Positions 11,815 through 42,063 of a stretch of 64,000 bases of DNA are shown here, in pieces; position 1 is the first letter of the stretch, and each line of letters starts with the position of its first letter. The notes under the pieces are model-generated. The model searched no databases. It was not told the origin of the DNA and saw only the letters and a program-made list of their open reading frames with translations. The stretch comes from Eledone cirrhosa (taxonomy: Eukaryota): positions 280,240,001 through 280,304,000 of the forward strand of contig OZ024743.1 of the NCBI GenBank assembly GCA_964016885.1, given 5' to 3'. The translations under genes and the position numbers were made by a program.

Positions 11815-11932
11815 CCATAAAGGAACCAGGTGGACCATAACGCACCAGAATACTCAATACTTAGGGTAGTAGAGTGGGAAATATCCATCGAAACGGCTTG
11901 AGCTCTGCAGTCGGGGTCATACTTTTTCATAT
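11815..11932 (+). mobile_element. Short PLE-type insert (inverted tail plus partial hammerhead 3' half)
   Basis: Homologous to 26645-26876: ggtggaccataacgcaccagaatactcaatac joined to cgaaacggcttgagctctgcagtcggggtc, then (TA)n. Confidence 0.55.
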
Positions 11933-11940
11933 ATATATAT

Positions 11941-12296
11941 ATAATAGTAATAAACGAAAGATATATACTTTATATCATCTCTATTTATTTCATTATATAC
12001 ATTTCGAAGATGTAAATTTTTATGTGTAACATAAAGCAAAACATGTCCTCCTCAGATAAAATGGACATGTTTTGCTTTATGTTATACATAAAAATTTACA
12101 TCTTCAAAATATATCTAATAAAATAAATAGAGATGATATAAAGTATATATCTTTCGTTTATTACTATTATTATTATTATTATAATACTCCGGATAAATAT
12201 ATATACCGTTGAGTGCTTGGTATATGTTATATATAAGAATCAGTTAATTACAAATCAACTAACTCTTTTTTTCATTGATTAATAAATATACATATA
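11941..12296. mobile_element. Fold-back element, about 108-bp arms with a one-sided extension (PLE pLTR-like)
   Basis: Arms 11941-12048 and 12063-12170 are reverse complements with few mismatches. The spacer reads ctgagga on the minus strand, with gaaa downstream. Flanked by (TA)n. Confidence 0.7.
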
Positions 12297-12585
12297 TATA
12301 TATGTGTGTGTGTGTGTGTGTGTGTGTGTGTGTGTGTGTGTGTGTGTGTGTGTGTGTGTGTGTGTGTGTGTGTGTGTGTGTGTGTGCGTGTGTGTGTGCG
12401 TGTGTATAAATAGGGAGACACAAAGCAGGCTTTGTTTAGAAACGGCTAGCGAATTTAAAAATTAGGTAGTAACATGTGCTTACGCCGTATTTGACTAAAT
12501 AGAATTAATCTGTTAGTAGGAATTTTTAAAAAAAACCTCTGAATGGAAAAAATATATCATTTATTTATGTTCATACACAGAACAA

Positions 12586-12674
12586 AACCGCTACCTAAGG
12601 TTTCAAGGCACAATATTGACCATATCTCCAGATTGCAAGAAGGATCAAAATTGTGACCCAGTCTTCAGGTGCTT
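12586..12674 (-). ncRNA. Hammerhead ribozyme motif (type I, long helix II) downstream of the PLE endonuclease
   Basis: Minus strand: ctgaaga, helix II gggtcacaattttgatc/ggtcaatattgtgcctt, gaaa, cc tta gg, ta. Helix I is degenerate. Confidence 0.55.
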
Positions 12675-12974
12675 ATACGAGTTTATAAGATACCGTTAAA
12701 AATAATGCATGCTAAAAAGTTAGTTTTCGAATAATGTATTATAATAAAGGGACATCACTCCAATATGTAAATTTGAAACACCGAAATCGTACACCCATTA
12801 ATATCCATGGGCTATAGCAGATGTATGGTATTATGTGGTGGTATGTAACATAGAGATCGCAATATTTATTAAGGCATGGAGTACTGTATTATGTAAGTGT
12901 GGAAAAAGAAAGAGCAAGAAAATATATTGCAAATTAAGGTGGTCGGGAATCAGTCGAATTTCGTTGAGTATTTC

Positions 12975-13395
12975 AACTTAGCAAGCAGTTGGCTTTGAGA
13001 CCGAGACATCGTCTAAAAATTTCGCTTGAGTTCAAATTATTGTTCTGAGACGATAAACCTTGTAATATTCTAAATTTCTAACTAAGATAGAGATGACATC
13101 TCTTGGTACAATTGTTGTAAGGACTGGATCTTTCAAGTATCTTCCAAGTAATCTTATGTGGGACTCCTTTCTCTTTTAATTGCCATACTTTGTTTTGCCA
13201 AGGCGGAATTGGTTCTCATATAAGGATTCCTGGAGGCGTGGAGATGCGAATAAAAACATTGTTTAAACGATCTTGCACCATACCGACGTATCTTTCGCTA
13301 ACTTCAGAATTGTATGTAGTGTTGTGTGTAATCTCTGCCTCATACACAACGGATTTGATAAGAGAACCCGAAACAGCCCTGGCTCATAGTTGCGG
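12975..13395 (-). pseudogene. Penelope-like element GIY-YIG endonuclease remnant
   Basis: Minus-strand translation with frameshifts: LIKSVVYEAEI...RYVGM...NSALAK.VWQLKEKGVPHKITWKILERSSPYNNCTKRCHLYL, matching the PLE consensus SVVY..YIG..LSKHIW.LK..W.IL....Y...KRC.LCL. Confidence 0.8.
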
Positions 13396-38367: not shown

Positions 38368-38471
38368 CACATACATACATACATACATACATACATACAT
38401 ACATACATACATACATACATACATACATACATACATACATACATACATAATACATACATACATACATACAT

Positions 38472-39103
38472 ATGAAAGAGTACTGGTGGAATGTTCCAGT
38501 AAAAACCCCAATAAAATGCAGGCATAACAGACCAGATATTATGATATGGGACAGGGAGAAGAAAACATGCACAGTAGTGGAAATTAGCTGCCCAGCAGAT
38601 GCCAATATAATATCAAAGATTAGTGAAAAGGAGAATATTTATGCAGAACTGATGAGAAATCTGCAGATACTCCACCCTGATTACACCTTCAGATTTATGC
38701 CTGTGATTATTGGGGCAGTGGGATATGTTAGTAACTGCCTCAATACAAATCTTGAGAAGCTGGGCTTGACAGGATCAGAAAGAACATAACTAGTTAGGAA
38801 ATTACAAGTACAATCCATTAATGGAACAGTAAAAATATGTAAAACATTCCAAAAATTTTGCATCTAATAACTGCATATACACATGTACAGATACAAAACA
38901 TATACACATGCACACATACAACTCAAAACATACACATCCACACATACAATAACATCCATATTTATACATGCATGCATGCAGACATACATACATATCTACC
39001 TAGTTGATGTTGTGTAAATTCCAATGAGAGAGTCTTGTGTCTATGTTAGAAACCGACTCTCACTCTATTCGTAAAACTTTGTGAAATTATAAAACCAGAA
39101 GAA
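38472..39103 (+). mobile_element. 3' end of an R4/Dong-type LINE (restriction-like endonuclease) in (CATA)n
   Basis: YWWNVPV...HNRPDIMIWD...VVEISCP...KENIY...PVIIGAVG; in-frame stop at 38789, continuing to GTVKICKTF. Confidence 0.85.
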
Positions 39104-40660
39104 CATACATACATACATACACACATACATACACACATACATACACACATACATACACACACACATACATACACACATACAAACACACACACATACATAC
39201 ACACATACATACATACATACATACATACATACTTACATACATACATACATACATACATACATACATACATACATACATACATACATACATACATACATAC
39301 ATGCATACCACCTCTTTATACATAGCGATGGTTTCATTAGTGAGCTGGATATCTTCGTTTCTAGTTAGATAAAACTATGCAAACTATTTAACTCACTATA
39401 TATGGGTGTGTATTTGAGTGTGTGAGCCTGTGAGCGTGGGAAAATGATTATGTCCGTGTGAGTCAATAACTATACTTGAATATGTGTATGTGGGTGAAAG
39501 TTGAATGCGTGTGTGTAGGTTGTGTATGTGTAGATTTGTACGTGGATTTGATTCTTTTGGAAGTGTATGTATATGTGTGCGTGCGTGCACAGTTATACGC
39601 GTGTGCGTTCGTATCCATATGCGCCTTCTGTGTGTGTGAGTGTGTGTGTGTGTGTGTGTGTGTGTGTGTACGTGGCAATTTAAAGCACATGCTAGTCGTT
39701 TATATGTTTATGTCTGTTTCTAGTATGCGTGCGTGTGCATACAAGGGTTTATATTTTTGTACTGTATATTGTATATATTTGAACTTGTCCATGGGGTGGC
39801 TGTCCATAGAGCTTGAGATTGCTATGCCGTCTTCCGTGTACGGTGAACAAATGTGGGCAGGTTTCTGTCTATATAGCGATTCCACTATAAACAACCGATG
39901 CGATCAGCAGCTTCAGCCTTGCCGGAGCTCCCTATGGATTGTCACGGAATAGTAGCGATTTCCAGGTCGTTAGTCTCAGTGTATTTTTGTAGGAGGCGTT
40001 CGACATGGAAGTGTAAAAAGTCTTGTTTGGACATTGCCAGTGGTTTCGGTGAACGTATCACTTCAGATAACTTCTGAATAGGTACTGAAAGACAGAGAAG
40101 TGGTTTCAAAGATGCCAAAATCGTGTTTTAAAGTGTTTTACACATCGGTTGCTTCAGGTCATGTGGTGACGTTGAACGATTATCACCTTTAACCTGTGTA
40201 TACACGTATACATAAAGGACACCAGCATAAATCATACAGAGACATAAGATATGCAGATTGCTTCCCAGGGATGCAGGCTCCATCAGGTTACCTGATTTTT
40301 CCTGGGGTCAGCAAAAGAAAAAAGACTGTTGTCGCTGACGGCTCGCGCGACATGAAGATCTTTGTAACACTTGTTTATTCAGAATGAGTTTCAAGAAGAA
40401 TTATACGTGTTTACATCTAACGAAACCACAAGTAATGCACGAATAATTCGAGGTGTTAGCACACACACACGCACTCGTATACAAACATATACATATATAC
40501 ACATAAATACTTAAAGAGAAAGAGAGAGAGATAGAGAGAGAGATAGCGAGAGAGAGATACAAACATACATTAATGAGAGTATGTAGCTGTTTCTCTTAGT
40601 CTCTTTCTGGCCCCCACCCTCTCTCTGTCCTTCTCACTCTCTCTCTCTCTCTCTCTCTCT

Positions 40661-41358
40661 CTATATATATATATATATATATATATATATATATATATAT
40701 ATATATATATATATATATATATAAAGTTGTAGTTCCTGTATGTTTGTTTGTTCACGAACTACTCCTATGGTTTGGGAGATAGACCCCCATAACCCTCTGA
40801 AACTACATTGCCCAGGGTACTTGGATAAGTATATTTCATTTTAATCAAAAGGTTCCCCGGGGCACAAATCCCCGCTGAAAATTTGTTTCCTTCGATTTAT
40901 ATGAAATTTAAACCATAGGTAAATGACAAGATATGATACCCATTCACAAAATTTCAGTAAATTTCAATAGTATTAAGACACTCTAATGGGGGTTAAACCC
41001 CATATTAGAGTTCCCCGGGGACACAAACATCCGCTGAAAATGTTTTCCATTCGATTTATATGAAATTTGAACCATAGGTAAATGACAAGATATGATGGCT
41101 ATTCAAAAAGTTTTGAATTGATATTTTGATAAAAATTATTAACAAGAAACAAAATAAGAATAAGATTTAATAATGTAATTTTGATTTGATATATTACAAA
41201 AAATAATGTTTTCCAATATTTCATGCATTACATTTTACATTGAGTAATATTAAAATGCACAGTTTTACTCCATAAATTATATCACTGATTTAAAATCAAT
41301 TATCATTTTCTTACGAAAGAATGTGTGAAACGCAGCAAGGCGCAGGTAATTCGGCTAG
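40661..41358 (+). mobile_element. Non-autonomous Helitron with an internal duplication (about 95 bp, period about 158 bp)
   Basis: Starts tctata(TA)n-aaagttgt; ends cgcagcaaggcgcaggtaattcggCTAG|T; block gttccccggg...gacaagatatgat occurs at 40852 and 41010. Confidence 0.7.
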
Positions 41359-41882
41359 TAAATATATATAAAACACTCACACACACACACATATATATTT
41401 ATAGATAGATACTAAGATAGAGAGATAGAGAGATTTAATATGCGTGTCTATCTGTGAGGAGGGGTGTTTGGGTCGGGGGGGGGGGGTATGTGTGTGTGTG
41501 TGTGTGTGCATGTGTACATTTGTGTGGTTGTCTACGTGTGTGTGCAGTATATTGTGTACGATGTGTGTATCGGTGCATATATAATGTATGCCCCGCAGTA
41601 TGTCGAGCTAGAAGTGCTACCAAATGCTTAGTTTCGACACATATTCCAATGTAATTAACTATTGCTTTAATTGTTCCACCCATCGGGCTAGAATCACGTA
41701 ACACATGTATGTACGTATGTATATACTTATTTATATATTTACGTGTATGCTTATGTATATATATCTATATCTATATATATATATATATATATATATATAT
41801 ATATATATATATATATATATACATTTGTGTATATATATATATATATATATATATATATATATATATTTTTTTTTTATTTTAA

Positions 41883-42063
41883 TTTTATAGAAGGAGCTTC
41901 TACAGGACTAGTACTGTTTCATTCAGATGAAATCTTCAGGAAGCTGAATGAAACAATACTAGTCCTGTAGAAGCTCCTTCTATAAAATAAAAAAATGTTA
42001 CTCTGCCATGTATTGAGTACCTTACTTACTGTGGTTATCCCCGACTCAACCCGGGACCTACGT
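41883..42063. mobile_element. Fold-back PLE-type insert (44-bp arms plus extension)
   Basis: Arms 41883-41926 and 41944-41987 with one mismatch; extension 41988-42063 is homologous to the reverse complement of 17098-17152. Confidence 0.8.
41895..41945 (-). ncRNA. Hammerhead ribozyme motif (type I)
   Basis: agcttc, ctgaaga, tttcatctgaat, gaaa, cag tactagtc ctg, ta, gaagct: perfect 6-bp helix I and a GUA triplet. Confidence 0.75.

Follow-up and report, generated by a model that had tools for sequence, protein, structure and literature searches.

A 64,000-nucleotide stretch of the Eledone cirrhosa genome (contig OZ024743.1, positions 280240001-280304000; "the window"), part of a 3.0-Gb, microsatellite-rich animal genome, contains six inserts in which two copies of one sequence stand head-to-head and one of them carries an additional tail. 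We propose, with a probability of about 0.72, that such inserts are short copies of the leaders of Penelope-like elements (PLEs), lacking open reading frames (ORFs), and that each arises as a new event: reverse transcription starts from both nicked ends of a (TA)n target on a single capped sense RNA, proceeds in each case to the first base of that RNA, and the two products are joined head-to-head. The observations behind this proposal are the ORF-bearing parents, two fixed arm ends, a site at which other arm ends pile up, an extra G at that site, the symmetry of arm lengths and the donor variants that both arms share.

All six inserts were found where a sequence-only reading of the window had placed them. 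That reading had counted about four families; our comparison, which relates the insert at 17098 to that at 41883, and 11815 to 26645, likewise gives four: A (41883) with its relative A2 (17098), B (11815 and 26645), C (11941) and D (20828). In each family, offsets are counted from the run-off site, which we call "position 0"; the fixed end at which the tail arm stops is T, the end of the other arm is P, and L numbers denote genomic loci extracted for comparison. Reference sequences are single genomic copies (L136, L225/L226, L142, L236, L274 and the window). The arms are listed below with a seventh insert, which the earlier reading had missed.

11802 to 11883, minus strand: B tail arm, +58 to +122, with a small duplication of the +102 to +120 piece; fixed tail end missing.
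11878 to 11932, plus strand: B P arm, +6 to +61, with the 3' half of the hammerhead motif; ends in (TA)n at a TA-containing P site.
11936 to 12062, minus strand: C P arm, +80 to +205; holds a complete type I hammerhead motif whose core lies near 12055.
12067 to 12296, plus strand: C tail arm, +97 to +306; ends in (TA)n.
17098 to 17153, minus strand: A2 tail arm, from +78 to the tail end; adjoins (TA)n.
17155 to 17210, plus strand: A2 P arm, +2 to about +60, hammerhead core at 17159, stem I shortened.
20828 to 21322, minus strand: D tail arm, -195 to +301, hammerhead core at 21065.
21323 to 21799, plus strand: D P arm, -219 to +245, hammerhead core at 21602; the junction lies within the parent's 3' untranslated region (UTR).
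26645 to 26785, minus strand: B tail arm, +1 to +139; reaches the putative transcription start.
26790 to 26876, plus strand: B extra piece (+3 to +21) and P arm (from +2), forming a three-part junction.
29999 to 30103, minus strand: diverged A-like leader copy (the seventh insert), about +2 to +103, between (TA)n tracts.
41874 to 41946, minus strand: A P arm, about 0 to +72, with a whole hammerhead motif, core at 41939.
41944 to 42063, plus strand: A tail arm, +19 to +139; ends in (AT)n at the fixed T site.

The single architecture that had been claimed for all six holds for the inverted arm pair and the tail. Three qualifications apply. The insert at 11815 is missing its tail end and lacks (TA)n on the left side; the B inserts retain only the 3' half of the hammerhead; and in the D insert, whose arms are 99% complementary over 377 nt, some 255-280 nt separate the junction from the hammerhead core downstream of it.

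Each family is the 5' leader, or pseudo-long-terminal-repeat (pLTR) end, of an ORF-bearing PLE of this genome, as the suggested PLE origin implied; for C the protein-coding part found is an endonuclease (EN) piece only. Copies of A that run past T enter an ORF for reverse transcriptase (RT) and EN, and the A parent, L136, is organized as pLTR-ORF-3' UTR-pLTR-tail, with an ATG at +183 and the ORF in three frame pieces. Its 3' UTR (1.9 kb, L136 3440-4900) contains much (TA)n, (TG)n and (TTTA)n; A thereby spreads microsatellites, its own target included. A second Hydra-type ORF lies right behind the A tail at this locus. The B parent (L226/L288) has an ATG at +231 and 469 codons open to the end of L226, with the EN frame in an upstream partial copy; in C, a Hydra-type EN piece stands upstream of the 3' UTR; and the D parent, L289, has 919 open codons with RT, EN, a CX4CxxC linker and CCHH (read by eye).

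Protein motifs suggest that A, B and C are Hydra-type PLEs. RWR and DKT occur in A and B; CxCX5C occurs in B and C and, interrupted by a frame break, in A; and all three families have CxxC and CxH, a single Cys in the GIY-YIG core and no CCHH (read by eye). Together with a C-terminal EN, hammerheads and insertion into (TA)n, this agrees with the Hydra clade, for which the motifs (the first as RW(K/R)), hammerheads and (TA)n insertion have been stated (PMC8557442 section 11). The A unit, however, measures 4,251 bp with its long 3' UTR, against the usual <3 kb, and B differs in a U3-A8 hammerhead core and in a promoter and start that would lie inside loop II. D is probably of the Neptune/Nematis type by its CX2-5CxxC linker before a C-terminal CCHH EN, an assignment that does not separate the two clades. 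In Pfam, D gave a below-threshold RVT_1 match, and A and B gave none; the Hydra-type proteins were not named by sequence searches of Pfam and PDB, and 2,815 unnamed relatives were returned for B.

The sequence-only reading had spoken of a dense set of inserts, and exact tail-pattern matches in the genome number 1,569 for A, 22,225 for B and 13,376 for D; family C is older, with copies 87-94% identical. For detailed comparison we took 60 of the first 62 exact-match hits of A, the first 67 of B, the first 30 of D and the 30 best hits of C. The two A hits omitted were neighbours inside a local triplication (L348, C1:118473800-118478600), in which a long two-armed insert is repeated at about 1,060-bp spacing, (TA)n flanks included. 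Assembly artefacts are an unlikely source of the inserts in general, given the point differences between arms and the variety of junctions.

Enrichment in (TA)n, also claimed, is strong: (TA)n follows T in 55/60 copies of A, 61/67 of B and 25/30 of D, and flanks P in 32/34, 41/45 and 10/11, respectively, against a background of 3.6-7.6%. Family C inserts in (TA)n as well (by eye). Both arm ends recur at set positions. T does not vary: it lies at +139 in A and in B, and at about +298 in D; P lies at +61 in most B copies, at +242 in D and between +60 and +73 in A; and in the parents a short TA word stands within or right after both sites. Tails are 56-100 nt long. Inserts of different families stack in the same (TA)n tracts, the end of another PLE family lying within 1.6 kb at 13 of the 60 A loci (L138-L197).

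Most A and B copies are short leader pieces, in line with the ORF-less short products that had been proposed. Short two-armed, short one-armed and long copies number 30, 11 and 19 in A, 43, 17 and 7 in B, and 9, 4 and 17 in D, and an inverted arm is present in 34/60, 45/67 and 11/30 copies. The short two-armed inserts measure 79-220 nt in A and 87-212 nt in B, lengths clustering near 190-205 nt, and junctions are mostly distinct (28/34 in A, 42/45 in B). One A junction recurs four times and another three times among the 34, at a palindrome or short homology.

Where the arms do not end at T or P, their ends are clustered rather than random, as the sequence-only reading had anticipated, and there is one pile-up site per family. 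Among arm ends between -60 and +59, those in the 13-nt window from -4 to +8 make up 48/72 in A (7.8 expected) and 68/95 in B (10.3 expected); the D figure is 6/26 (1.6 expected), and in C 7/44 arm ends fall at +3/+4 (hand count). Genome-wide, 735 A matches begin at 0 and 91 at +3, while 535 continue upstream. In A, A2 and B the site is preceded, about 25-30 nt upstream, by a TATA-like word; in D there is no TATA nearby and the arm ends are dispersed. The available text of PMC2377424 places the Penelope promoter in the pLTR, and the short copies here have no promoter.

The earlier reading had assigned the clustering to the ribozyme, with hammerhead structure (or, in a variant of this view, self-cleavage) fixing the point of template switching. 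By its sequence, a type I hammerhead motif is present in the pLTR of these families. A scan for the type I core and stems I-III gave whole motifs in A, A2, C and those B copies that retain upstream sequence, and a motif scan of the window gave that of D; between A and A2 a compensatory change in stem I points to covariation. The Rfam search that had been recommended returned no hammerhead match in the window or in three narrow regions, and the motifs rest on the core-plus-stems scan instead. The B motif combines a U3-A8 core, a natural variant of the hammerhead C3-G8 pair, with a long loop II, and short B copies contain only its 3' half, without the 5' core. In family B (L226 about 1345-1440) the TATA word and the putative start fall within loop II, so that the whole ribozyme would be foldable only by a 3' read-through copy. 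In the flanks of L001-L287, motif scanning turned up 131 different type I hammerhead-like variants, which belong to many additional families.

A role for the ribozyme in setting the ends would account for the A pile-up, which lies at the 5' edge of stem I, and for 6/44 C ends at +80 to +98 and 3/41 D ends at +50 to +65. Across families the core is nevertheless offset from the pile-up site by +6 in A, -43 in B, +84 in C (+87 when counted from position 0) and +60 in D, a spread of 130 nt; in B, 0/112 ends fall at the core or the 5' arm of stem I; and only 2/94 A ends and 5/112 B ends lie near the cleavage site. With the TATA-like word upstream in A, A2 and B, and with the extra G described below pointing to a cap rather than a cleaved end, we regard a ribozyme-fixed switch point as highly improbable.

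At the pile-up site the arms are often preceded by a base that the genome does not supply. In A, a G stands before position 0 in 43/52 rows versus 15/82 at a +3 control (Fisher p=9e-14; hand counts). The A count used the first 100 rows less 44 palindromic rows and 4 that continue upstream; the control allows the same three letters, with 9/91 rows dropped as continuing upstream. In B, restricted to rows with pure (TA)n up to -2, the base at -1 is G in 30/50, T in 13, A in 5 and C in 2 (hand count); over all rows G occupies -1 in 44/100. The restricted B test is free of templating by the other arm because pure (TA)n reaches -2, and its G comes neither from the genome nor from the target. A machine tally on the extracted loci agrees (A, G in 16/22 non-genomic bases), three C arm ends starting at +3 have a G in front of them, against a genomic T, and at L328 a G is found on both arms.

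Untemplated G in L1 and SVA inserts has been ascribed to copying of the 7-methyl-G cap, according to the part of PMC3287187 available. The pile-up site, the TATA box and the extra G together suggest that a capped sense transcript, probably made by RNA polymerase II, begins at position 0, and that the G is the copied 5' cap. Four contig sets guessed to be RNA were not used as evidence because contigs cannot show starts or levels; two contain A relatives, with (TA)n loose ends near P and far higher summed leader depth, and two contain nothing.

The lengths of the two arms bear on how they arose. The P arm is longer than, shorter than or equal to the tail arm in 13, 14 and 7 A inserts and in 18, 18 and 9 B inserts. 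This symmetry contradicts fold-back as the sole route, in which the 3' end of a single cDNA would fold back and serve as primer for the inverted arm, a TA-like word being the place where the second end is resolved; fold-back of a tail-primed cDNA requires the shorter arm to be the P arm. Shared donor variants in the arms, the 1-6 nt overlaps at many junctions and the local template switching seen at three-part junctions (26645, L335) would fit such a process. Against it, both arms can reach position 0 with a G of their own (L328), and P-ended arms occur alone with the G: among 12 B loci chosen for (TA)n plus G, eight are single arms ending at P, three end at T and one is two-armed with TA filler. 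Fold-back is thus unlikely as a general account, and may explain part of the junctions.

The two arms come from one donor. A B subfamily tag is common to both in 31/33 inserts (0.24 expected), and the A variant 49T is found in both arms four times and in one arm once (0.24 expected); the other arm-to-arm differences (34) are unshared. Arm-to-arm gene conversion was considered and rejected, on 1 shared versus 20 unshared differences in the unbiased A set and 6 versus 87 rare variants in B. Because differences are otherwise unshared, the shared variants do not derive from later or wholesale conversion. Self-priming on an antisense RNA template, the route proposed for head-to-head palindromes of rotifer PLEs in the accessible text of PMC3846280, would likewise yield head-to-head orientation and shared variants from one molecule. 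The arms stop, however, at the predicted sense start with an untemplated sense-strand G, which an antisense template does not predict, and we give this route very little credence.

On the reading that we favor, double target priming, the PLE protein would bind the leader of its own capped RNA and cut both (TA)n strands. The two 3' ends would prime RT at internal sites T and P, the tail being the stretch between them, and each cDNA would either reach the cap or stop short. The cDNA 3' ends would then anneal by 1-6 nt of homology or by filler and copy each other, which would supply the second strands. Priming from a single end would leave a one-armed (TA)n-G-leader-(TA)n insert, long copies would likely result when read-through RNA is primed at its 3' pLTR copy, and the hammerhead would be carried along uncleaved.

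Parts of this scheme have precedent in vitro. For PAc, a Poseidon element of Anolis, the available text of PMC11167929 reports that both strands are cleaved and extended, that two internal RT starts bound the tail and that hammerhead cleavage is not needed, and it describes the steps after RT initiation as unvalidated. The likeness to the inserts described here lies in these three features; the same text gives no account of inverted copies or cap run-off products, and our evidence is genomic and from other clades. More generally, an inverted copy plus tail is standard for EN-bearing PLEs in the accessible portion of PMC8557442, and how PLEs build inverted repeats and tails is stated there and in PMC3846280, as far as both texts are available, to be open. 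The units described in those portions resemble ours in head-to-head arms, one-sided tail, pLTR hammerhead, AT-rich target and ORF-bearing parents. They differ in that most young A and B copies here are only 60-220 nt of leader with a sharp 5' run-off site and an extra G, and in tail length, 30-40 nt in the published units. The architecture is thus already published; the start-site, cap and double-priming footprints add to it. Neither cap run-off PLE inserts nor cap or double-priming evidence was found in the literature, of which older subscription papers and bioRxiv supplements were beyond reach.

The short cDNAs also invite comparison with the minus-strand strong-stop cDNA of long-terminal-repeat (LTR) elements, for which RT starts near the 5' end of the RNA and runs off. 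As in the L1 and SVA case (PMC3287187, in its available part), RT run-off at the cap would add a cap-derived base. Here, by contrast, priming would be from a nick in the target DNA, and the product becomes integrated. No LTR-like scar of strand transfer from a short cDNA to the 3' pLTR was found: 535 A arms cross position 0 exactly, 11 A arms have a change at -1 (A 4, T 4, G 3), and B has 4 matches at two places.

Small, ORF-less repeats with type I hammerheads and a PLE link also describe non-LTR retrozymes (accessible parts of PMC7229834 and bioRxiv 10.64898/2026.07.22.740005), and the sequence-only reading had raised a retrozyme-like non-autonomous system, transcribed, cleaved and re-inserted as a unit. 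The huge copy numbers, the clustering of lengths and the recurrence of some A junctions would suit such a family, as would the argument, in the available text of the latter source, that animal retrozymes derive from PLE pLTRs. Retrozymes are nonetheless tandem units according to both, head-to-tail with a ribozyme per unit, whereas the copies here are dispersed, head-to-head or single, and often hold a partial ribozyme; short B copies are without half of it, and the short copies have no promoter. Lengths vary, most junctions are unique, the recurrent ones sit at a palindrome or short homology, and each family has an ORF-bearing parent, or the EN end of one, in this genome. Head-to-tail arrays were not seen: 0/60 A loci have two same-strand cores within 1.6 kb, and 6/6 close pairs inspected proved to be either stacked inserts or duplications with (TA)n between them. 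We consider a retrozyme-like family very unlikely.

Several points weigh against double target priming on a capped RNA. The assignment of position 0 as an RNA polymerase II start, with G as copied cap, is sequence-based. When palindromic rows are kept, the A share of G falls to 43/96 (p=2e-4), and the other arm may have served as template for some of the A G's. The pile-up windows were picked after the data were viewed, and the A, B and D samples, being consecutive exact-match hits from the start of contig C1, favor young copies. Two B rows (L209, L211) were wrongly joined by the aligner in the mapping of B arms, and a looser B comparison, with the tag shared in 46/61 (0.13 expected), partly reflects register shifts. 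Family D fits weakly: 17/30 copies reach upstream and starts are dispersed, and the D insert of the window is a long product rather than a run-off product. The six C ends at +80 to +98 surround the hammerhead core and include the window copy. Finally, the arms would fit two RNAs of one donor as well as one RNA molecule.

The window has several other features. At 20084-20296 the 3' part of a U6 small nuclear RNA (Rfam, 50.6 bits) is fused directly to the end of another repeat family that targets (TA)n; 0/11 other ends of that family in the extracted loci carry U6, and the fusion has the appearance of a template switch onto U6. Several inverted pieces of one repeated element, 83-91% similar, lie at 20374-20673 and 25961-26365 beside (TA)n. 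LINE (long interspersed nuclear element)-type endonuclease and RT frames (by eye) occur at 21897-25006 and 9973-11711 on the minus strand and at 45544-48657 on the plus strand, and a 42-bp satellite with at least 338 copies, 95% matches and extreme GC skew fills 49801-64000.

Counting three families only, the (TA)n tracts of this genome contain about 37,000 young tail ends. We think it reasonably probable that integrated Penelope "strong-stop" cDNAs are preserved in this genome by the tens of thousands. They would map PLE starts to the base and reveal that, in vivo, PLEs integrate by double target priming on a single capped sense RNA and that cDNAs joined head-to-head take the place of second-strand priming. 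If so, the inverted pLTR and the tail of PLEs would be explained together, and the proposal of antisense self-priming would be replaced. The footprints (start site, cap G, two priming sites and arm symmetry) are countable at base level, and the question is testable in the existing in vitro system. Dense hammerhead-bearing mini-repeats, moreover, need not be retrozymes.

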